A DNA stretch of 64,000 bases, taken from assembly GCA_003484955.1 (NCBI GenBank), contig DMZH01000002.1, forward strand, positions 211,496-275,495, read 5' to 3'. Positions 7,080-64,000 of this stretch are shown piece by piece. A model generated the notes under the pieces. The model had not been told where the DNA came from. It searched no databases and saw only the letters and a program-made list of their open reading frames with translations. The DNA comes from Candidatus Woesebacteria bacterium (lineage in GTDB: Bacteria; Patescibacteriota; Microgenomatia; UBA8517). Each line of letters begins with the position of its first letter. The first letter of the stretch is position 1. Position numbers and translations under genes: made by a program.

Positions 7080-7817
7080 TTATATACCAAGCTCAGTCCG
7101 GATTAGATTTTTAAGCTGATTTGGATCTCCCGAAAGCGTAACTTTTTTACCGTTAATATAAAAAGTGGGGGTTTCACTTAATCTCACTGTGTTTCCGTCA
7201 TTCGTGTCTCTTTGCACAATATCCTTTACTTTTTGAGAACCCATGTCCGAAAGAAATTGATCCGTGTTCAACTCCAAATTCTTGGCATATTCAACAAAAA
7301 GACTTGTCGGGTCGGATGACTTTACCCAATCGTTTTGGGTCGCATATACTTTTTCCTGCATCTCCCAATATTTACCCTGAATTCCGGCTGCTTCTACCGC
7401 ATATGATGAAATGGAACCGTTTTTGTGTTGAGGCAGGGGATAGTTTCTGAAAACATAATTCACTTTCCCTGGAAATTCGGTTAAAACTTGTTTGACAAAA
7501 GGGGCGTAAACGGCACAAGCGGGACACTCGTAATCCCCGAATTCAACCAGAGTAACGGTAGCTGAAGAACTTGCGGCAAGATATGCTCCGTCGATAAAAC
7601 CCGACGTTTCATAAACACCTGTTGGAACCAGAATTGAGGAATTAACAGCAGCAGAATTTGTCTGTGGAGAACTTCCACCACCCATAAGAAATATTCCTCC
7701 CACAATAACGGCAAGGGTAGCCAGAGCTACTGTTATGAAGACTTTATTTCTTTGAAAAAACTCCTTCATTTTTGAGTAGAGTAAATTATAACAGGTGGCC
7801 CACCACTCGGCAATCAA
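7080..7817 (-). CDS. DsbA-like thiol:disulfide oxidoreductase with N-terminal TM anchor
   Basis: Thioredoxin-fold CxxC active site (EFGDYECPACAVYAP). N-terminal TM helix. Confidence 0.75.
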   Translation of the reverse strand: MIAEWWATCYNLLYSKMKEFFQRNKVFITVALATLAVIVGGIFLMGGGSSPQTNSAAVNSSILVPTGVYETSGFIDGAYLAASSSATVTLVEFGDYECPACAVYAPFVKQVLTEFPGKVNYVFRNYPLPQHKNGSISSYAVEAAGIQGKYWEMQEKVYATQNDWVKSSDPTSLFVEYAKNLELNTDQFLSDMGSQKVKDIVQRDTNDGNTVRLSETPTFYINGKKVTLSGDPNQLKNLIRTELGI

Positions 7818-54406: not shown

Positions 54407-55075
54407 TTATTGACCAAAAGGATTTGGATTGAGGGCGCTTCCGGTTGCAGTAACAGTCTCACCAAAAGAAGGAAAAGTTAAGTTACCTATCTGCGTTAGC
54501 AAATCTTTTTCAGAAACAGTTAAGTCTGTAACGGATTGTGTTACGGTAGGGATGGTTGAAGGAAATTCCGCCCAATAAGTTCTTGTTGAAATATTTGCAA
54601 TATTTACTCCTTTATCCTCGCTCAACTGCATTTTATCAACCAAAGTGATCGGAGCAATACTGTCTATACTTTTTATGAAGGAAATTATTTGTTCCCTGGG
54701 ACCGGTGACATTAAACGAGGTGGTTACGGACGAAAGACTTGAAGAATCACCGCCTGCTATGGAAGCCCTTATGTCACCCAAGACCAATAAATTATTACTG
54801 GCCAAAAGTTTTAATTGAGATATTATTTGCAACGATGGATTAGACTTTGGAAGAGCAAATGTGACCGAATCTGCGCCGGATACTGTCGTCTGAGATAACG
54901 ACTTGAGAATTTTAAGTTTTTCCGACAACGTGGATTGGGTCTTTTTGGCATCATTAATTTTTGCCCGTAAATCCGTAACTTGAGATATACCAAATTTACC
55001 CACAATAACAAAGAGTATTATTACTATTACAAGCGGAGCCGTCGATTTTAATATTTCTTTATCGTTTTCCGACAT
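54407..55075 (-). CDS. pilO: Type IV pilus assembly protein PilO-like
   Basis: N-terminal TM, coiled coil and position after the PilN-like gene. Confidence 0.55.
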   Translation of the reverse strand: MSENDKEILKSTAPLVIVIILFVIVGKFGISQVTDLRAKINDAKKTQSTLSEKLKILKSLSQTTVSGADSVTFALPKSNPSLQIISQLKLLASNNLLVLGDIRASIAGGDSSSLSSVTTSFNVTGPREQIISFIKSIDSIAPITLVDKMQLSEDKGVNIANISTRTYWAEFPSTIPTVTQSVTDLTVSEKDLLTQIGNLTFPSFGETVTATGSALNPNPFGQ

Positions 55076-55077
55076 AA

Positions 55078-55617
55078 TTATTTATTGGTCAAACTTACCG
55101 CAATTGAGTAACCGTTATTCGCGCTATATGTGAAAGAGGGAAGGTTTATCGTATTAAACAGCTTGGTGCTTTTAATATTTTGAATAAAACTGGTTAGATC
55201 CTCGTTGGATCTAATAATCAGGGAGATGTCCATTTTGGACGAAGTAATATTTGCCTCATTCATGGTCGATGCGGAAGAAACATTTGCAAAAAGTGAATCA
55301 ACATTTGTTATGCTTTTCGAAGCATTTGGGGTAGATTTAATAGATGCTATTTTGGCAAGTCTGTCTTTGAGCAAAATTAATTGTTGTTCGCTTGTTTCTT
55401 GAGCCTTAACTTGGGTCTTAAGCTGGTCAACACTGACTTGAGTGTTTGTAAGTGTCGTTTTATTAATAATAAAAAGAGCAACAATTCCTAAACAAAAAAC
55501 AACAAAAGCGACCACCAAAATAACTCCGAGTGCTTTGGCTGTTTTAAGAACTTTACCGAGACCTTTACTGACTTGAAGGTTTTGCGGCAAAAGGTTTAGG
55601 TTAAGATTTTCCGGCAT
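55078..55617 (-). CDS. pilN: Type IV pilus assembly protein PilN-like
   Basis: Single TM plus coiled coil. Immediately downstream of pilM. Confidence 0.6.
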   Translation of the reverse strand: MPENLNLNLLPQNLQVSKGLGKVLKTAKALGVILVVAFVVFCLGIVALFIINKTTLTNTQVSVDQLKTQVKAQETSEQQLILLKDRLAKIASIKSTPNASKSITNVDSLFANVSSASTMNEANITSSKMDISLIIRSNEDLTSFIQNIKSTKLFNTINLPSFTYSANNGYSIAVSLTNK

Positions 55618-55620
55618 ATT

Positions 55621-56670
55621 TTATTCACGCATTGCAAGCCCAACCGCAACGCCATAAAGGGGGGCAAACGATGCCAGTTTTTGAACAGATCCGGGATCGA
55701 TTTGAATATGCATAAAAGGGTTGCCGACCAGAACTTCCATACCAACCGTTTTCGACAGCGCAGAAATCATATCGGGCATGCCACTGGATCCACCTGACAT
55801 AACAAGGGTTGTAGGCATTTCACCTTTTTCATCTGTTAAGTAGTAATTAACGGCTTTTTTAATTTCATCCACAACCAAACGGACCACCGGATCAAGTGCG
55901 TTTTTAATTTTCCCTTCAAGTTGGCTGGGAGACAATCCGTAAGCTTTTTTATACTCTTCTGCCTGCTGAGGGGTTATTTGAAGATTCTGGGAAACCGCAC
56001 GGGTAAAAGCATCACCTGCAACAGGTAAAGATCTGGAGAAAGAGAGAAGCCCGTGGTTTACAATTGCGATATTCGTAGATGAACCCCCAAGATCAACCAG
56101 AAGCACTGTTTTATCAATCGGGGAAAGCGCTCTGGAAAGGGCTATCAGTTCCGTTTCCACAGCAACAGGCATAAGACCGGCCATGTGGACAACCTTGACA
56201 TACTTCTCAACGATTATCCTGGGAGCGGCAACCAAAAGCACTATTACACCGCCGTCGGGACCCGCCGTGTCACTCCTTTTCAGGATAGCGTGTTGAATAA
56301 TTGCCTCGCTTACAGGAATTGGTATATATTGCTCAGCCTCCCACTTGATAGCTGAGGCTATCTCGCTATCGGTTAGTGATGGAAATTTTATTGTCCGTGT
56401 AAACACAAGCGGCTCGGGCACCGAGACTACAACTTCTTTTGATGAAATCTTCGCCTCAACACATAATTTTTTGATTACCTGGGCAATTGATGCCATTTCC
56501 TTTTCTTCCGACATCTTATCCACAGTAGTTCCTGAATAACCGACAACTCCCGAGGCAACTAAAGAAAATGAAGCTCCGTTTTTTTCTAATTCAACAACTT
56601 TTATGGTTTTGCTCCCTATGTTAATTCCAATCATGTGGCAGTTTAGACACAACCAGTCTACACAATTCAT
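55621..56670 (-). CDS. pilM: Type IV pilus assembly ATPase-fold protein PilM
   Basis: Actin-like fold motifs (IGINIGSKTIKVVEL ... DLGGSSTNIAIV). Confidence 0.8.
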   Translation of the reverse strand: MNCVDWLCLNCHMIGINIGSKTIKVVELEKNGASFSLVASGVVGYSGTTVDKMSEEKEMASIAQVIKKLCVEAKISSKEVVVSVPEPLVFTRTIKFPSLTDSEIASAIKWEAEQYIPIPVSEAIIQHAILKRSDTAGPDGGVIVLLVAAPRIIVEKYVKVVHMAGLMPVAVETELIALSRALSPIDKTVLLVDLGGSSTNIAIVNHGLLSFSRSLPVAGDAFTRAVSQNLQITPQQAEEYKKAYGLSPSQLEGKIKNALDPVVRLVVDEIKKAVNYYLTDEKGEMPTTLVMSGGSSGMPDMISALSKTVGMEVLVGNPFMHIQIDPGSVQKLASFAPLYGVAVGLAMRE

Positions 56671-56715
56671 TTAACAATAAATGATACCTTGCGTCAAGGT
56701 TAATCAAGAAGATTA

Positions 56716-57639
56716 TTATTTAACGAGACCGTAAGGACTAAATACGGAGAGTCCGCTGAAAGGAAACTCAGCCCAGCTCTGAAAAACGTTTACCCTGCGG
56801 TTACTTTCACTGCCGGTAACTCCGGAGCTTCCCGTGGAAACAATCTCCAGCCCTTGAGAGGGTAGAGTGGTGTTTCCCGCAAAAGCTACACTGGTCCCGA
56901 CTATATGGCTGGCGTCTGTGTTATATAGCATTCTAACCTTGGCAAAAAGAAGTCCATTCGCCACAGTATATGAACCGGCGGGAATTCCAAGCCCCGACAT
57001 TGTAATTGTTTTTTGAAATGCATAAGTGACTCCGCCAATTTGGCAGGTACCCACCGGATCGGGCATTGCAAAAGAGTTTGATGCTCTTCTTGCGTCGTTG
57101 GGATCATATACCGCCCTGGCAAGTTTTGTATTGGCAAGAGATCCGACAGGATTTTCATAATAGACGCTTACCTCGATTGCGGGAGTTGTCGCTGTACTTT
57201 TAGATGTTCCCTCATTTCCCCAGCAAATTTTGAGCGTATTCCCCGTAAAGCACGGGTAGCCGGCCCCACAAAATATATTTCCCAGGGTGTTATGAGAAAC
57301 AAACCAGTTTGTCATTGAATTGCCCGACAGGAGCTTCGACGGGTAGTTAAACGTGGTTTGGCCCTCAGAATAGTCTGAAACATCAACCGAGTATGAAGCA
57401 TTCCCAATTGAGACATCGCTATAACTGCTCCCCGTAATTAGCGCTCTTTCTATCCCGGCCTCGGCAGCCGAAAAAGCACGAACCGAATCCGCCTGCTCGG
57501 TTGAAATGGAAATATCGGTTATTGAACGGGATAGAATAAAAAGAACTATTGTCAAAACAACGGAAAGAGACAGAAGCACCAAAACCAACGCCTGTCCGGA
57601 TTCATAGAAAAAGGTTTGTCTAAAACTGCTTCTTTGCAT
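56716..57639 (-). CDS. PilX-like pilus-associated protein (hydrophobic N-terminus without canonical prepilin cleavage motif)
   Basis: ESGQALVLVLLSLSVVLTIVLFIL at the N-terminus, 307 aa, located between the minor pilins and pilM. Confidence 0.5.
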   Translation of the reverse strand: MQRSSFRQTFFYESGQALVLVLLSLSVVLTIVLFILSRSITDISISTEQADSVRAFSAAEAGIERALITGSSYSDVSIGNASYSVDVSDYSEGQTTFNYPSKLLSGNSMTNWFVSHNTLGNIFCGAGYPCFTGNTLKICWGNEGTSKSTATTPAIEVSVYYENPVGSLANTKLARAVYDPNDARRASNSFAMPDPVGTCQIGGVTYAFQKTITMSGLGIPAGSYTVANGLLFAKVRMLYNTDASHIVGTSVAFAGNTTLPSQGLEIVSTGSSGVTGSESNRRVNVFQSWAEFPFSGLSVFSPYGLVK

Positions 57640-57690
57640 TACATCTCAGTTTAACAATTGGGCATTATAATTGCAATTTTAAATAAGCGT

Positions 57691-58221
57691 TTAATAGTTC
57701 CTCAAATAAATTTGGGATTTCGCGCTGACGACCGAGCTCTCGACACCTACGCCGGAAGCGTCCTGTACCGTAAGGTCAATGGTTATGGATGGGGGATTTG
57801 ACAAATCCGCATGGGCGCAGGTAAATGAACAGCTGACAATTTTTATTGAATCCGAGGTAAGTCTTACGGAGGTAGGTATTGCGGATCCTGAGGCAATATA
57901 AGAACCGGCGGCGCCAGTATTCACACAGAAAAAGGATGTAGAGGTCTTATTCTGGTCCAGGTAGGTAATCTTTTTTGTGTCGGAGTTTGTACAATCAGAA
58001 ATCATGTTTGCGCCTCTAATGTTTCTTTCAATAACAGCAAGTGAATAATTAAGATTTTCCCTGACCTTCATCAAAGACTCGGATTTTTTGGCACCGCGCA
58101 AGGTTAGCATCAGAGAGCTGGAGACAATTACTCCCAAGATGGCAAAAATTGTAACAACAACCAATATTTCAATCAGACTCAAGCCCCCGGTAAGCCTTTC
58201 CCTGTGAAAGTTTTTTTTCAT
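57691..58221 (-). CDS. Prepilin-type minor pilin
   Basis: Class III signal (GG|LSLIEILVV) with Glu at +5. Confidence 0.7.
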   Translation of the reverse strand: MKKNFHRERLTGGLSLIEILVVVTIFAILGVIVSSSLMLTLRGAKKSESLMKVRENLNYSLAVIERNIRGANMISDCTNSDTKKITYLDQNKTSTSFFCVNTGAAGSYIASGSAIPTSVRLTSDSIKIVSCSFTCAHADLSNPPSITIDLTVQDASGVGVESSVVSAKSQIYLRNY

Positions 58222-58228
58222 ATCTAAA

Positions 58229-58678
58229 TTATTTTATTGATAAATTTGTTGAACCTAATGACTCATGTATTCCTTTTGAGTCAGTCCAGGTGATGGTTAC
58301 ATCAACCTGCACAAGATTTGGCGAAGTTGTTTGAAAATCAACCTGGCGTGTAAATTTTGTCCCTGTTACATAATCGCTGGCCCCACAAGCTCTGGGAAGC
58401 GTCCAGGTAAGCTCCTTAAAACACCATACTCCGGTTGCCGTATGCGCAATAAACACATTAAGGTCGCCGTCTCTCTCCTGTCTTAGCCATTCATTGGTTT
58501 GCACTATATAATTTGATGCCAAAGTGCTGTCTCGGGAAAAGGATGAGTTCTGAATTGAATTTGTAGTCAACGAAACTATGCCTGTAATTACCAATGCGGT
58601 TATGGCAATTGCCACAACGACCTCAAAAAGTGATTGTCCCTTTTGTAATTCATTATTAACTCTTAATTTAAAATTCAT
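58229..58678 (-). CDS. Prepilin-type minor pilin
   Basis: KG|QSLFEVVVAIAI with Glu at +5. Confidence 0.65.
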   Translation of the reverse strand: MNFKLRVNNELQKGQSLFEVVVAIAITALVITGIVSLTTNSIQNSSFSRDSTLASNYIVQTNEWLRQERDGDLNVFIAHTATGVWCFKELTWTLPRACGASDYVTGTKFTRQVDFQTTSPNLVQVDVTITWTDSKGIHESLGSTNLSIK

Positions 58679-59184
58679 TTTATGTCTCCTCCAGAACCAA
58701 TCGATATTACTTGTGTTTGACCGGTAAAACCTTGGGTAAGAGTAATCGAAGCGCCACCCGCAGGAATATTTGTTCCCATTCCCAATACTTTGAAAAGGAT
58801 TGGGTTTGGAGACGGAGTAGAAATTGTAATATTCGGGGGCATATTAACATCATTGGTTGTAATACTTCCGCCCGAACAGAAAGCCTGAACTTGATATCTG
58901 GTGGTAGAAACAACTCTAAAGTAGTAACCGGACAAAGTCTGCGTACCGCCACAAGCGGCACCTGTCGGTTTGGTTCCGGATAGGGCATTTTGCTGAGCTA
59001 CCCTTAAGTCTCCATTAACTAGTTTCACGGCCCCTGCCAAAGCCTGACGCCTGGAAAAGTCTCTGTATCCCACGAAGCCGGCACCAAAAAGAATCCCGAT
59101 AACCGTTAAAACAACCAGAATCTCAATGAGCGTGTAGCCACGCTCTGTACGATTAAAATCTTTCATGAGCGTGTAGCCTTTCAT
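58675..59184 (-). CDS. Prepilin-type pilin
   Basis: RG|YTLIEILVVLTVIGIL. The start overlaps the upstream stop (ATGA). Confidence 0.75.
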   Translation of the reverse strand: MKGYTLMKDFNRTERGYTLIEILVVLTVIGILFGAGFVGYRDFSRRQALAGAVKLVNGDLRVAQQNALSGTKPTGAACGGTQTLSGYYFRVVSTTRYQVQAFCSGGSITTNDVNMPPNITISTPSPNPILFKVLGMGTNIPAGGASITLTQGFTGQTQVISIGSGGDIK

Positions 59185-59630
59185 GGATTTGTTACCCTGT
59201 AATTACATGTCGACCCTCCGCAATTAGAAGTGGCACCACAGGTAATGGTCGTTCCGCCCTGTTCAAGAGAAGCACAAAGCTGGTAAGTTGAGCCGTCAGC
59301 CGAATAATATAAATAACTTCGACTTGTCGAGGTGGGGTCTAGGGGAACCTGGGAAATATAGGTATTTGTATTCCCGCATGTGGCTATTGTTCCTACTAAA
59401 TTGGATAATGTTCCTGCGGTGGCTTTAACCAAATATTTACCTTGATTGCAATCGGCCTTATACATTTCAAGTCCGCTTCTTATTTGTTCCAAATCGGATT
59501 TTCTCCTTCCATCACGGGATGCCTCCCTTGCTCCCTGCATGCCAAAAACCGAAAGGGCAATGAGAATTCCCAGTATGGAGATCACAACTAAAAGTTCAAC
59601 TAATGTAAAGCCTTGTTTTGTAATTTTCAT
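59181..59630 (-). CDS. Prepilin-type pilin
   Basis: KQG|FTLVELLVVISILGIL. Cys-rich C-terminus. Confidence 0.8.
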   Translation of the reverse strand: MKITKQGFTLVELLVVISILGILIALSVFGMQGAREASRDGRRKSDLEQIRSGLEMYKADCNQGKYLVKATAGTLSNLVGTIATCGNTNTYISQVPLDPTSTSRSYLYYSADGSTYQLCASLEQGGTTITCGATSNCGGSTCNYRVTNP

Positions 59631-59631
59631 T

Positions 59632-60126
59632 TTATTGTGTTAATCCCGCCGGACACCCTCCGGTACTGAATACTGTGGAGGAGCTTATCTTTCCGGACTG
59701 ACCAGTAGAACAGACAACCCAATAGGTGTTGCTTATGTTTTCAAGTTTTGCCCATAAAACATACCGTGTAGCCTTTGCTGCAAAGTCGTTTGTGGTCCCG
59801 TCCGTTTGATATTTGTAGGGAGGTGGGTCACCATCCGTTGCGTCATACTTCGGATCATTCGGACAAGTACCGCTAATTACCAAAGCGTTACACAAACCGG
59901 TCATTGTAGCGGATCCCGAGAACCAGGCTGGATATAAACCGTTATTTTTATTTGCAAATGCCTCAATTGAATTTTGATATTGCTTAAGGTCCGATTTCCT
60001 TTGAGTATCTCTGGCTTGTTTTTGGGTAGATGTAAAAGAAACTGTTGCAAGTGCTGCCAAAATACCAATGATGGATACAACAACCAAAAGCTCAATTAAT
60101 GTAAATCCCCGTTTTATAATTTTCAT
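59632..60126 (-). CDS. Prepilin-type pilin
   Basis: KRG|FTLIELLVVVSIIGIL. Confidence 0.8.
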   Translation of the reverse strand: MKIIKRGFTLIELLVVVSIIGILAALATVSFTSTQKQARDTQRKSDLKQYQNSIEAFANKNNGLYPAWFSGSATMTGLCNALVISGTCPNDPKYDATDGDPPPYKYQTDGTTNDFAAKATRYVLWAKLENISNTYWVVCSTGQSGKISSSTVFSTGGCPAGLTQ

Positions 60127-60127
60127 A

Positions 60128-60568
60128 TTATGGTTTTACCGAATATCGACAGCCTGAGTCACCGGAACAGGCAATTATGTTTCCGCTGGCATCCTTATCG
60201 CATTTGGCGTCGCTTTTATTTTCAAGGCAGGCAGTTAGTGTAAAAGTGTCATTAGCGGCATCCGGAGCGTAAGTATAGGCCTGGCCGGGAAGAGGATCAT
60301 TGGGAACTTTGCTCATATAAACATTACTGGATGTTGACCATTCCGCACCCCAGGGAATGGATGTGGAAAGGGGCGGATAAGATCCGCTGTCATTGTAATA
60401 AAGCCTAAGAGCTGTTTGAAGATTTTTAAAATCAGCTTTTCTTACCGCGTCCCGGGAACGGCTTCTGGCAGCGTTCAGGTTTGCGGTCACAAGAGTAGCT
60501 AAAATTCCGATTATCGAAACTACCACAAGAAGCTCGATTAAGGTAAAACCTTTTTTATTGGCAGTCAT
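60128..60568 (-). CDS. Prepilin-type pilin (start trimmed to the internal ATG at 60568)
   Basis: MTANKKG|FTLIELLVVVSIIGIL. The 71-codon extension in the track lacks pilin character. Confidence 0.75.
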   Translation of the reverse strand: MTANKKGFTLIELLVVVSIIGILATLVTANLNAARSRSRDAVRKADFKNLQTALRLYYNDSGSYPPLSTSIPWGAEWSTSSNVYMSKVPNDPLPGQAYTYAPDAANDTFTLTACLENKSDAKCDKDASGNIIACSGDSGCRYSVKP

Positions 60569-60605
60569 ATTCTTAATTAATAATACAATAAATTTATACC
60601 GGACA

Positions 60606-61151
60606 CTAATTTGCAGTCGCAGTCGTATTGGGACTCGTAATCGAAAAGTTACAGCCCACAGTACCCCCGCAGGCGACACCCGCGGGTAAATCGGTATGCG
60701 TACTGCAATTGTTCCCGATGCAAGCACTTGTATCCTGTGAATTTTCAAGCCCGGCATAAAGTTGAAACCCCTGATTCGCACCCCCCCCGACAGTCACGGT
60801 ACGATAATAGTATTTATAGTTTGATGCAGGGTCTTTTGGTACCGTCTTTAAGTAAATTGTTTTTCCATCGGTAAACTGTCCTATACCCCAGGAACACACG
60901 GTACTTGTTGTAGACGGACAACCCGCCACCTGGCCATTCGAAGAGGTGGGATAGATGCCGTAATCGTTATAGTATATTTCAAGGGCATTAGAGATTTGTT
61001 TCAGGTCAGATTTCCTTTGGGCGTCGCGGCCTCTCATTTGGGCACTGCTGAACACAACCAGGCCAATTGTTGAAAGGATACCTAAAATCGCGATAACAAC
61101 CAGAAGCTCGACAAGAGTAAAACCCGACTTTGAATTTTGTTTCATGGGCAA
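60606..61151 (-). CDS. Prepilin-type pilin
   Basis: KSG|FTLVELLVVIAILGIL. Cys-rich C-terminus. Confidence 0.8.
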   Translation of the reverse strand: MPMKQNSKSGFTLVELLVVIAILGILSTIGLVVFSSAQMRGRDAQRKSDLKQISNALEIYYNDYGIYPTSSNGQVAGCPSTTSTVCSWGIGQFTDGKTIYLKTVPKDPASNYKYYYRTVTVGGGANQGFQLYAGLENSQDTSACIGNNCSTHTDLPAGVACGGTVGCNFSITSPNTTATAN

Positions 61152-61170
61152 GTATCTAATATTTATAATA

Positions 61171-61755
61171 CTACTTTTTCAAAAGCGCTGCTTCTTCCTC
61201 ACACTGTTTTAATGTCTTAGGAATATCGCATCCATAAGAACGTCCGACATTACAAACACTACTGCCGCAGTAAAGATTTTTAGCAATGATTTTTACATCA
61301 ACCTCCGGTTCAGATTTCCCCTCCATTGCCGCAAACACCTGAAATCGGGCTCCGTCACTCAAATACAGATAGGAGACTCCTTTTTGCCAGTACGGCTCAC
61401 GGGGGAGAACTGTCATATACACTTTACCGTTTATCAAATTAACAAATGCATCTTTTCCCCAGTCACAGGGAATTGGATCAAACACCCATTGCCCTTTTTT
61501 ATCTTTATATGGCTTATCTCCGGGTTTTAAACAATCCATAATTCTGCCGTCGGGGGAGGACGGGGGAAAAATGCCTAGCTCTGCATAATATTCGTCCAAT
61601 GAATGTTCAAGTGACCCTAAATCATCACGTCTGACCTGATCCCGGGCACGCCGCAAACTGGCAATAAAATTAGGAATAGACACAATTACAAGGATACTAA
61701 AGATAACAATCAATGAGATCCTCTCTGATTTGGAGAAAATTTTTAATTTAGACAT
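61171..61755 (-). CDS. Divergent pilin-like protein lacking the canonical G/FxxxE cleavage motif
   Basis: Hydrophobic N-terminus (ISLIVIFSILVIVSIPNFIASL) followed by the pilin-conserved ARDQVRRDDLGSLEHSLDEYY block. There is no Gly at -1 and no Glu at +5. Confidence 0.55.
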   Translation of the reverse strand: MSKLKIFSKSERISLIVIFSILVIVSIPNFIASLRRARDQVRRDDLGSLEHSLDEYYAELGIFPPSSPDGRIMDCLKPGDKPYKDKKGQWVFDPIPCDWGKDAFVNLINGKVYMTVLPREPYWQKGVSYLYLSDGARFQVFAAMEGKSEPEVDVKIIAKNLYCGSSVCNVGRSYGCDIPKTLKQCEEEAALLKK

Positions 61756-61762
61756 TGGCTAA

Positions 61763-62362
61763 TTATAAAAAGCTACAACTGTAAATAGGCTGACCGCAAC
61801 TGCCGTTACAATTTGGTAAATCCCAGGTATAACTTGAGCAGGTATTAGGTCTGTCAAGATTTGTACAAATACCCTCTATACACCCATAAAGATTACTTCC
61901 TTCATTGGGAAAGTTGGGTGCGTTGTCCGAGGACATATAAAAATTATATGTGTCACCCGGTCCAACACCCGGAATAGCAGACGCATCTTTGGTGTATTGC
62001 AAGGTGGTATAAACACGGAACCAAACCGGGCAAGGCGTCCCGTCGTTTTCGTAGAAATAGGCATTGCCCGTCACAGGATCACAGGGTACGTCGGTTAGGT
62101 AGGGGTGGATCGGAATACCGGCATCTGTACCGCATGCATTCATAAGCGCAGCATCAGGATAACAATTGTGATCTTTTTCGTATTCTTCAACGGCAATTTT
62201 AATTGAATTCAAGTCGGCTTTACGTTTTGAATCATTACCCTTGTGAAGCTGTGGAGAAAAAGACATAACTGCAGCCAGAACCAAAATGGCAATAATGGAA
62301 AATATAACCATTACCTCAGTCAAGGTGAAACCGAGGTATATTTTTTTGTTCCCGAGTGTCAT
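61763..62362 (-). CDS. Prepilin-type pilin
   Basis: LG|FTLTEVMVIFSIIAIL. Confidence 0.75.
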   Translation of the reverse strand: MTLGNKKIYLGFTLTEVMVIFSIIAILVLAAVMSFSPQLHKGNDSKRKADLNSIKIAVEEYEKDHNCYPDAALMNACGTDAGIPIHPYLTDVPCDPVTGNAYFYENDGTPCPVWFRVYTTLQYTKDASAIPGVGPGDTYNFYMSSDNAPNFPNEGSNLYGCIEGICTNLDRPNTCSSYTWDLPNCNGSCGQPIYSCSFL

Positions 62363-63111
62363 ATTAAGCCCAAAAAATGTGTTATTTTATTACCAAAAAC
62401 TACCGCCAGTCCGAGTCCGATGATAAGAAAAGGTCCAAAAGCAATTTTGCTTTTCATTTTCGCCCGACCCAGTAGAATCAGTATGCTGCCTGCGATTGCC
62501 CCTGTCAAGAAAGCTAAAAGAAACCAAATCGGAAGCAATTTTAAATCAATCAGAATTCCTCCAAGCACCGCGAATTTTACATCCCCAAGTCCCATACCTT
62601 TACCTTTAGTTATCAAATGTAGCAACATTAGAAGAGACGCGGCAAAAAAACCTGAAAAGATAATAGAAAATAATGAATTAGGAATAAAGAATAATGAATA
62701 AAACAGAGCGACAAAAACGCCAATAAAAACAAGAGGGTCGGGGATAATTTGATTTTCCAAGTCGATAATAAAAATCGATAAAAACAAGAGAAATAAAATT
62801 AATAAATATATTGTTTTAATATAATCGGGGAGTACCGTAAGGCCTATTACTAAAAACCCGCAAGCCGCAGAAAGTTCAATAATGGGGTAGCGCAATGAAA
62901 TTCCGGTTTTACAATTACGACATTTACCGCCAAGTCCAAGGTAAGAAAAAAGGGGAATGTTGTCGTACCAGGCAATTTGTGATTTACAGTGAGGACAGAT
63001 ACTCCTTCCCTTTACAAAAGACATTCCGCGGGGCACTCTCCAGGTAAGAGCGGAGATAAACGAGCCAAAAACCAATCCCAAAGTTAAGAGAAAAATAGAC
63101 TCAAGAAGCAT
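62359..63111 (-). CDS. pilD: Prepilin peptidase (A24 family) PilD
   Basis: N-terminal CxxC...CxxC zinc motif (CPHCKSQ...CRNCKT), conserved Asp motifs (GMGLGDVKF), polytopic membrane protein. Confidence 0.85.
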   Translation of the reverse strand: MLLESIFLLTLGLVFGSFISALTWRVPRGMSFVKGRSICPHCKSQIAWYDNIPLFSYLGLGGKCRNCKTGISLRYPIIELSAACGFLVIGLTVLPDYIKTIYLLILFLLFLSIFIIDLENQIIPDPLVFIGVFVALFYSLFFIPNSLFSIIFSGFFAASLLMLLHLITKGKGMGLGDVKFAVLGGILIDLKLLPIWFLLAFLTGAIAGSILILLGRAKMKSKIAFGPFLIIGLGLAVVFGNKITHFLGLI

Positions 63112-63114
63112 TTC

Positions 63115-63741
63115 TTATTCCGGTACACACTCTGCACAGGTTGGCATGTTACTACCAGTCACTGTCCAGCCGGCTGAAGTGGGAGTACTGCAAGCAGTCG
63201 TGTATGTAGGTAATCCTGCCGTTAAGCCCGCAGTCAAATCAACCACTTTGCCATTAGTATGGGCCGTTTGTCTGGCTGAATTAGATTTGGGAACCCAGCA
63301 GGCAAAAACACTTGACGAGGCTCCTGCACCTTTACCAACAAATAAGCTACCGGCGGATGTTGTTGCTTTAATAAACGAACGGCTTAAAAACGCAACTTGC
63401 AGTTCATTCGCATCTATAAGAGTTCCCCCTGTAGTACATCCCGTAGCAGAACAAAGACCAACTAAAGCATCTTTGGCGGTTATAAAAGGAAATGCCGTGT
63501 CAGCGCTTGGATAGTTCGTGGGGTCAGTCACTGACCATGGATAATTGTTATGACCTGTGTAATACCTTTGAAGAGCAGAAACAACCTGGCTTGCATCGGC
63601 TTTCATTCCGGAATCACTTGCTCTGTTGGCTTGCTCAATGGGGTTTATTGCTGCAATAACTATCGTGGCAATTATTCCAAGAAGTGCAATAACTATAAGA
63701 AGTTCTACCAATGTGAAACCTCGAGCAGTTTTTTGTTTCAT
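63115..63741 (-). CDS. Prepilin-type pilin (first pilin after pilC, possibly the major pilin)
   Basis: ARG|FTLVELLIVIALLGIIATIV. 208 aa. Confidence 0.8.
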   Translation of the reverse strand: MKQKTARGFTLVELLIVIALLGIIATIVIAAINPIEQANRASDSGMKADASQVVSALQRYYTGHNNYPWSVTDPTNYPSADTAFPFITAKDALVGLCSATGCTTGGTLIDANELQVAFLSRSFIKATTSAGSLFVGKGAGASSSVFACWVPKSNSARQTAHTNGKVVDLTAGLTAGLPTYTTACSTPTSAGWTVTGSNMPTCAECVPE

Positions 63742-63809
63742 ATTATCGCTATACCGTACTTAATTATTATTATCGGTTCCAAAAACCTTGTCAATAGGCA
63801 GTTCCGGGA

Positions 63810-64000
63810 TTAAAAACTGCTTGTCAAATTGTAAATCGGAAGTATCACGGCAATTACCAAAAATCCGACACCAAGACCTAAGACAACCATAACTATTGGC
63901 TCGATGGCGGCGGTTAGGCCTTTAACTTTCTCGTCGCTTTCAACTTCAAAAATACGGCTAATTTTGGTCAAAACCTCATCCATTTTTCCTGTTTCCTCAC
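63810..64000 (-). CDS. pilC: Type IV pilus platform protein PilC, C-terminal fragment (gene continues beyond the window)
   Basis: The translation of the reverse strand ends ...GLTAAIEPIVMVVLGLGVGFLVIAVILPIYNLTSSF*, matching the C-terminus of the T2SS-F/PilC domain. Confidence 0.7.
   Translation of the reverse strand, partial: EETGKMDEVLTKISRIFEVESDEKVKGLTAAIEPIVMVVLGLGVGFLVIAVILPIYNLTSSF

Follow-up and report, generated by a model that had tools for sequence, protein, structure and literature searches.

A conserved type IV pilus operon of Woesebacteria encodes a pilin-like protein that lacks the cleavage-site glycine

The DNA analysed here, a stretch of 64,000 nucleotides (nt) from a Candidatus Woesebacteria bacterium (contig DMZH01000002.1) that we refer to as the window, carries on its minus strand, at positions 54407-64000, one tightly packed string of type IV pilus genes. 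These encode, in order, the C-terminal end of PilC, a candidate major pilin, PilD, nine more pilin-like proteins (six GspG-like pilins and a GspH/I/J-like set), a PilX-like candidate tip subunit devoid of Glu5, PilM and two bitopic proteins at the places of PilN and PilO. Adjacent genes mostly overlap or are separated by fewer than 10 nt, and the widest gaps measure 40-70 nt. The edge of the window cuts pilC; in relatives, pilB and pilT stand ahead of pilC (PilB-PilT-PilC, full length), and the downstream flank (KH protein, S16, RNase III, NusB and RecG) is shared by the window and the relatives. This gene string represents the distal portion of a conserved type IV pilus operon, of the monoderm type, from a Woesebacteria genome (Microgenomates, Candidate Phyla Radiation, CPR). 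Among CPR type IV pilus loci, the operon itself is ordinary and conserved. The PilC, PilD, PilM and PilN/PilO partners of a type IVa-like machinery are encoded together with pilins, and the core minor pilin set (GspH-I-J-K or FimU-PilV-W-X) is represented by four consecutive genes, the last without Glu5. The original prediction, made from the sequence of this stretch, had described the region as a large type IV pilus operon, as Pfam hits and gene order bear out, had set it in the context of CPR bacteria, and had placed eight further pilins after pilD, where we count nine; there are ten pilin or pilin-like genes, plus the PilX-like gene. The nine canonical class III signals that it had reported were all recovered by a motif scan, as G↓FTLxE in six genes and G↓YTLIE, G↓QSLFE and G↓LSLIE in one each (the arrow marks the junction between positions -1 and +1). 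Since a six-frame scan of the other 54 kb of the window found the motif nowhere outside these nine genes, such a cluster is far beyond chance. The tenth pilin-like gene, at 61171-61755, is the subject of this work.

The open reading frame (ORF) 61171-61755 begins MSKLKIFSKSERISLIVIFSILVIVSIPNFIASLRRARDQVRRDD, and the residue at position -1 is Ile instead of Gly, so that its leader ends in neither of the class III residues, Gly and Ala. When the ten pilins were aligned with MAFFT, KLKI↓FSKSE fell opposite xxxG↓FTLVE, with Phe7 at +1 and Glu11 at +5, the latter being the sole invariant column among the ten. The absence of Gly at -1 had been predicted correctly, while the accompanying statement that Glu+5 is missing does not hold. 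Positions +2 to +4 are polar (SKS), +6 is Arg, and the hydrophobic run starts at +7 (I13-L34). A longer form of the protein is impossible because its reading frame is closed by a TAG two codons before the ATG. An alternative upstream start that would supply a standard leader, a case that the original prediction had named as one that would refute it, was also rejected in the relatives, where the maximal ORFs of 19 orthologues never hold Gly-Phe at the site.

Compared with Pfam and NCBIfam, the protein matched neither PF07963 nor TIGR02532, nor any other Pfam family, whereas PF07963 was matched by all nine other pilins, seven of them above its cut-off. With TIGR01710 (GspG) it scored 26.3 bits against a cut-off of 88.85, and PF08334 gave no match; judged by its sequence, the product is a relative of the GspG major pseudopilin and not an equivalog. 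Its kinship with the other pilins extends past the transmembrane helix, as predicted: the block RRARDQVRRDD that follows the helix is common to the paralogs, and the closest of them, pilin 4, is found by BLASTP with an E value of 1e-10 over 125 amino acids (aa) once the transmembrane helix is removed. The AlphaFold2 model (predicted local distance difference test score, pLDDT, 92) has a GspG-like pilin fold with one continuous helix over residues 9-60, as in pilins, so that the protein displays the lollipop shape of a long N-terminal helix on a beta-sheet head. Four Cys are invariant in its family. The gene encodes a real pilin paralog that very probably escapes the prepilin peptidase, a pilin-fold protein that fails the pilin cleavage-site test yet very probably works in the same machine.

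At least 157 homologues, 190-200 aa long, came up in a protein search. Position counts were taken on 119 of them, anchored on the RDQxRRD block: Phe is found at +1 in 119/119, Lys or Arg at +3 in 118/119 and Glu at +5 in 117/119, while position -1 holds Gly in 0/119 and Ala in 1/119, the other residues including Pro (42), Ile (17), Lys (17) and Leu (14). The sequence that precedes +1 has six residues in the window protein and just three in 69 of the 119 homologues (MKPFSKSE...). A profile search of 1.8 billion cluster representatives gave 89 clusters below an E value of 1e-30. When the search was seeded with divergent members, Phe (107/109), Glu (107/109) and Lys/Arg (105/109) were again nearly constant, Gly and Ala occupied -1 in three sequences each out of 109, and 92 had a three-residue pre-sequence. 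Gly or Ala at -1 is thus clearly avoided across the family, which also keeps Thr/Ser+2 and Pro+22 and in which Ser33 is invariant. All the organism names attached to its members are Woesebacteria, Microgenomates or 'Patescibacteria group'.

These counts indicate that Glu+5, Phe+1 and Thr/Ser+2 are under strong purifying selection, and because of this selection we regard the class III signal of the family as specifically remodelled rather than decayed or lost: Gly/Ala at -1 has given way to any residue, the pre-sequence has been shortened and Lys/Arg has become fixed at +3, with Phe+1, Thr/Ser+2 and Glu+5 kept. The same family-wide conservation led us to reject the possibility of a pseudogene or decaying copy. 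Pfam and NCBIfam hold no model for this family, which includes leaderless relatives (see below), and its members are recorded as 'hypothetical' or 'PulG'; motif-based pilin finders therefore miss the Gly-less proteins. No description of the family was found in the searchable literature on leaderless, uncleavable, atypical or Woesebacteria pilins, a coverage outside which most subscription journals fall. The Gly-less or leaderless Lys+3 family is thus an undescribed variant of pilins.

In a neighbour-joining tree built on head domains only and rooted on canonical pilins, which as a single tree is indicative only, the Lys+3/Glu+5 proteins without exception group in a single clade. Over-represented among its early branches are proteins that keep Gly-1 (G↓FTKPE, G↓MTRNE) and proteins that start exactly at +1 (MTKTE). 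The latter state is illustrated by two pilin-like genes directly after pilD, L026:2112-2648 and L027:3001-3492, whose Met stands at +1 (MTKTE...). On the DNA, the ATG of one of them is preceded, four codons earlier, by an in-frame stop; in the other (L027), the stop lies 15 codons upstream with no alternative start in between, and a GGAGA box precedes the ATG. Given these stops and the lack of alternative starts, both genes are genuinely leaderless. Lys/Arg at +3 together with Glu at +5 thus emerges, as an indication, as the common denominator of the family.

Conservation of the operon was assessed in a scan of one genome per Genome Taxonomy Database (GTDB) species, which yielded 19 loci (L001-L019) titled Woesebacteria, Microgenomates or 'Patescibacteria group'. 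The titles 'uncultured Gammaproteobacteria bacterium' carried by the GTDB metagenome-assembled genomes of L001, L003, L004, L008, L012 and L016 are almost certainly placeholders or mislabels. In every locus long enough, the best match of each window gene occupies the same position in the same order, and the orthologue of gene 61171-61755 is syntenic in all 19, either after pilD or after pilD and pilin 2. In the window clade, pilD and one pilin precede it; in four more distant contigs with the same overall operon, it directly follows pilD. Mean identity to the window proteins is 77% for PilM, about 59% for the GspG-like pilins 4-7, 56% for the product of 61171-61755, 49% for pilin 1 and 45% for pilin 2. 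Pilin 1 is thus poorly conserved for a pilin, only pilin 2 and the GspI-like gene being lower. With a mean identity like that of the minor pilins, gene 61171-61755 is not decaying.

These data bear on a different view of the array, namely a variable repertoire homogenised or shuffled by gene conversion at similar 5' ends, of which gene 61171-61755 would be a decaying copy. The original prediction had pointed in this direction, suggesting an expanded pilin repertoire whose shared 5' ends could allow conversion between paralogs. In its favour, the motif coding for GFTLIELL is common to all genes, and the best pair of 5' ends is 78% identical over 78 nt. The predicted 5' similarity exists but is weak: over the first 90 nt of the mature regions, window paralogs are 33-61% identical, and the longest exact run common to any two of them is 12 nt. 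Comparing all pairs over the same region, mean identity is 0.511 between different paralogs of the same genome, 0.506 between different paralogs of different genomes and 0.685 between orthologues. The 5' similarity is therefore the product of the shared peptide motif and carries no sign of gene conversion. Since, in addition, each paralog pairs with a single orthologue at the corresponding position in 19 species and the Gly-less gene is as conserved as its neighbours, we consider this view highly improbable. By these comparisons, the pilin repertoire is a fixed, ancient set of specialised subunits and not an expanded, variable one.

The remaining features of the locus are listed in Table 1. 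The last three pilins have GspH, GspI and GspJ, in that order, as their top NCBIfam matches. A longer ORF of pilin 5, starting at a GTG, overlaps pilin 4 and does not give the true start. PilD carries CxxC...CxxC pairs at Cys 39, 42, 64 and 67. The annotated ORF of PilM has a Cys-rich 12-aa extension (MNCVDWLCLNCH), and its real start is probably Met13, at 56634.

Table 1. Features of the type IV pilus locus and the distant DsbA-like gene, in positions of the window
Feature	Position	Strand	Evidence or remark
PilC platform protein, C-terminal end	63810..64000	-	Pfam T2SSF E 1.7e-10; gene continues past window end
Promoter-like site TTGACA-17-AATAAT	63766..63794	-	11/12 consensus match; in 68-nt gap before pilin 1
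Pilin 1, candidate major pilin, MKQKTARG↓FTLVE, 6 Cys	63115..63741	-	Pfam N_methyl, TIGR02532
PilD, bifunctional prepilin peptidase / N-methyltransferase	62359..63111	-	Pfam A24_N_bact E 2.8e-29, Peptidase_A24 E 9.6e-13
Pilin 2, GspG-like, LG↓FTLTE, 10 Cys	61763..62362	-	Pfam T2SSG + N_methyl
Non-canonical 'K3-type' pilin-like protein, MSKLKI-FSKSE, transmembrane I13-L34, GspG-like head, 6 Cys	61171..61755	-	
Pilin 4, GspG-like, SG↓FTLVE	60606..61151	-	Start probably ATG at 61145
Pilin 5, GspG-like, MTANKKG↓FTLIE	60128..60568	-	
Pilin 6, MKIIKRG↓FTLIE	59632..60126	-	
Pilin 7, GspG-like, MKITKQG↓FTLVE	59181..59630	-	
GspH/FimU-like minor pilin, RG↓YTLIE, duplicated leader	58675..59184	-	Top NCBIfam match TIGR01708 gspH
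GspI/PilV-like minor pilin, KG↓QSLFE	58229..58678	-	TIGR01707 gspI E 1.9e-5
GspJ/PilW-like minor pilin, GG↓LSLIE	57691..58221	-	Weak TIGR01711 gspJ, Pfam N_methyl, place in GspH-I-J order
PilX-like tip pilin candidate, SG↓QALVLV, no Glu5, 307 aa, beta-sandwich head	56716..57639	-	Homologues named PilX in source records
PilM	55621..56670	-	Pfam PilM_2 E 3.5e-46
PilN-like, N-terminal LNLLP motif, one transmembrane helix	55078..55617	-	Position after PilM, sequence, same-position orthologues; no Pfam match
PilO-like	54407..55075	-	Weak Pfam T2SSM_b match E 0.004, plus position
Membrane-anchored DsbA-like thioredoxin-fold protein, CPAC motif	7080..7817	-	Pfam Thioredoxin_4 E 2e-25, DSBA E 2e-9

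The leaders of the canonical pilins hold repeats and inserts of their own. On the minus strand at 59126-59178, in the GspH-like gene, a perfect 14-nt direct repeat (GGCTACACGCTCAT) occurs twice, 39 nt apart, yielding MKG-YTLM-KDFNRTER-G↓YTLIE; a predicted hairpin (GAGCGUG/CACGCUC) overlaps the second copy. Among 168 canonical pilin genes from 20 genomes, 12 have a leader in which the 'start codon - leader - GFTL' module is duplicated in tandem and in frame, the carriers being the window and L001, L004, L005, L006, L008, L009, L010, L011 and L014. The duplicated units are mostly of 39 nt, in 2-3 copies, and in the upstream copies Ile-Glu-Leu has changed to Met-Lys-Gln-like residues; predicted hairpins pair the leader insert with the FTL/YTL codons (z -2 to -3). 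Another leader insert, of 33 nt (ATAAGAACCATTCGRAAGAAC/TyTTGTCAGTGTG, peptide IRTIRKNxVSV), is found in pilin 6 of L001 (11681-11713) and in the GspH-like genes of L005 (12703), L009 (9148) and L010 (12566). It is near-identical in nucleotides across paralogs and species, with flanks about 50-60% identical in protein, and its candidate origins are transfer, template switching or a selected RNA element. A widespread mobile element was considered and rejected: a metagenome scan with a 26-base-specific pattern gave two more copies, both in the same two gene contexts, so the insert is rare. Ala replaces Gly at -1 in 24 of the 168 canonical pilins, in the relatives L001-L019 and often together with a leader insertion. 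Leaders turn over fast: L001 is the closest relative, at about 93% identity, and yet three of its leaders differ from those of the window.

As to expression, the TTGACA-17-AATAAT site upstream of pilin 1 is the best sigma-70-like match of the region and lies in the only sizeable gap heading pilin genes; it was called on its consensus match, and promoter-like sites overall are not enriched relative to shuffled sequences. Its presence would fit a separate, high expression of a candidate major pilin. Over 54407-63741, a clear Shine-Dalgarno-like sequence (GGAGGAG, 7 nt upstream) precedes only the GspI-like gene, the leaders of the remaining genes being AT-rich. Cys counts are even in all eleven pilin-like proteins, ranging from 2 to 10, which is consistent with disulfides. 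The original prediction had connected Cys-rich pilins with a nearby DsbA; the DsbA-like gene is 47 kb away and therefore not adjacent to the operon. Its product is likely the oxidase of the Cys-paired pilin heads.

The role of the Gly-less protein has to be considered in light of what is known of type IV filaments. The leader of a prepilin 'invariably' has Gly or Ala as its last residue, Glu5 is salt-bridged to the N-terminal amine of the next subunit up, and the fibre grows from tip to base with a tip subunit devoid of Glu5 (PMC10191384). According to a preprint that cites Nivaskumar 2016 and Santos-Moreno 2017, the T2A and E5A variants of PulG lose binding to the platform protein PulM (bioRxiv 10.1101/2022.09.21.508927). 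Pseudomonas aeruginosa cannot assemble pilins unless the leader is removed, and those left unprocessed build up in the membrane (PMC13170266). The leading reading of the 61171-61755 product remains the one already suggested in the original prediction, an unprocessed and membrane-retained protein. We propose, with confidence evenly balanced between yes and no, that this pilin-like subunit, left unprocessed by PilD, stays in the membrane and serves at the fibre base as anchor or terminator. An N-in topology would be set by the basic N-terminus together with Lys+3, leaving Lys3, Lys5, Lys9 and Arg12 in the cytoplasm. PilD being unable to cut it, the product would remain a bitopic membrane protein, held in the membrane by I13-L34 and exposing a disulfide-bonded pilin head on the outer side. 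Since Phe1, Ser/Thr2 and Glu5 are kept, it would still engage the platform and the N-terminus of a processed pilin: Thr/Ser2 and Glu5 would allow recruitment by PilN/PilO, and the protein could dock under the N-terminal amine of the processed subunit. It would offer no free N-terminus at +1 to a further subunit. Given this missing amine and the extra charges, a membrane-proximal anchor or terminator is the most economical assignment; at the basal end, the protein would mirror the tip subunit that lacks Glu5. What the data show is the gene anatomy, the conservation of the family, the fold, the synteny and the lack of a cleavable site; the escape from processing, the membrane retention and the basal role are inferred.

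Some points weigh against a basal anchor. That PilD of Woesebacteria has the cleavage specificity known from other phyla is an assumption, a signal peptidase I site can be read into the conserved Pro+22 and the invariant Ser33, and the deep branches of the tree, which keep Gly-1 or start at +1, fit a PilD-independent polymerisable subunit equally well. The last of these is the main rival, plausible because leaderless relatives exist, although we rate it as rather doubtful: Lys/Arg+3 or a very short N-terminus would replace both the leader and the amine partner of Glu5, and the protein would be extracted and polymerised unprocessed as a genuine fibre subunit. The Met(+1)-Thr-Lys-x-Glu members verified on DNA, the graded series that leads from cleavable G↓FTKxE to Gly-less forms, and the complete pilin fold with Phe1, Thr/Ser2, Glu5 and Pro22 all agree with such a subunit. 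In the window protein, however, the charges brought by six additional residues (two of them Lys) and by Lys+3 and Arg+6 would have to pass through the membrane and end up in the hydrophobic core of the fibre, and the need for leader removal in P. aeruginosa (PMC13170266) speaks against assembly of an uncut form. In a wider scheme, Woesebacteria would have a natural class of prepilin-peptidase-independent pilins, in which Lys/Arg+3 replaced the leader as topology signal and so allowed the loss of Gly-1 or of the whole leader with Glu5 retained, the window-type protein being a base cap that ends polymerisation and anchors the fibre; we offer this scheme only tentatively.

Two further explanations place the protein outside the fibre. 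It might be a non-cleavable pseudo-substrate or partner of PilD or of the platform, such as a regulator or scaffold of prepilin processing. The retention of Glu+5 and of Phe+1, which flanks the scissile bond, is compatible with that, as is the position of the gene, directly after pilD in distant relatives and after pilD and one pilin in the window clade; adjacency inside a tight operon is nevertheless weak evidence, and an interaction at the cytoplasmic face would not need a conserved, disulfide-bonded extracellular head of about 130 aa, so we find this role unlikely. Alternatively, the N-terminus could act as a regular Sec signal peptide, with signal peptidase I cutting behind Ser33 and releasing a soluble pilin-head protein outside the membrane. 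The basic n-region, the hydrophobic stretch of ~20 aa, the Pro at -6 and the invariant small Ser33 followed by Leu have the look of such a peptide, but in Sec signals no particular residue is conserved, whereas here Phe+1, Lys+3 and Glu+5 hardly vary over >200 sequences. Moreover, two Arg right after the putative site disfavour export, the modelled helix 9-60 runs continuously across it, and the same region is uncut in the canonical paralogs, which together make cleavage by signal peptidase I decidedly improbable.

Type IV filaments obey two rules: the leader is cut after Gly/Ala by a dedicated peptidase, and Glu5 pairs with the new N-terminus of a neighbour. In the Gly-less family, a natural and conserved exception, the two come apart, the cleavage site and sometimes the whole leader being gone while Phe1, Thr/Ser2 and Glu5 are kept. 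It thus offers a handle on the separate roles of Glu5 and of the leader, on fibre termination and anchoring in bacteria with a single membrane and no secretin, and on how uncultivated CPR bacteria build pili. If the basal role is true, the Glu5-less tip cap would have in the base cap the counterpart it has lacked, and archaeal ArlF/ArlG would have a bacterial analogue.

Compared with GspG/PulG/EpsG of the type II secretion system (T2SS) and the GspG-like minor pilins of CPR bacteria, the window protein differs by the absence of Gly/Ala at -1 and by Lys/Arg+3 within the usually hydrophobic FTLI. It also differs from GspG in having no N_methyl/TIGR02532 match, a larger head with conserved Cys pairs, and a monoderm CPR host instead of a T2SS organism. 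ArlF/FlaF and ArlG/FlaG may resemble it in logic only, as operon-encoded, filament-subunit-like monotopic membrane proteins without a class III signal at the base of a filament; FlaF is archaellin-like and anchors the archaellum by binding the S-layer (PMC4425475). ArlF/FlaF differ, being archaeal, with an archaellin-like beta-sandwich head and no described Phe1/Glu5 remnant, and we claim no homology. The Glu5-less tip subunits (GspK, PilX/PilK class) likewise miss one class III element, fitting their terminal position in the fibre (PMC10191384), but they keep the cleavage site and lose Glu5, whereas the window family does the opposite. In pilD mutants of P. aeruginosa, uncleaved prepilins are a mutant state of normal pilins, while in the window family the uncleavable form is written into the gene and conserved throughout a lineage. 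Also comparable are the T4P-1 and T4P-2 loci of Saccharibacteria (TM7x), which combine one small major pilin with several minor pilins resembling T2SS pseudopilins and with a large PilX whose head is a lectin-like beta-jelly-roll (PMC11623550); the suggested link of CPR pili with episymbiosis and DNA uptake comes from this work on Saccharibacteria. In that paper, a term search returned no mention of a Gly-less or leaderless member (PMC11623550). The PilX-like head of the window is also a beta-sandwich, as in TM7x PilX, and compared with TM7x the Woesebacteria operon is a single locus in which ten pilin-like genes stand in a fixed order.

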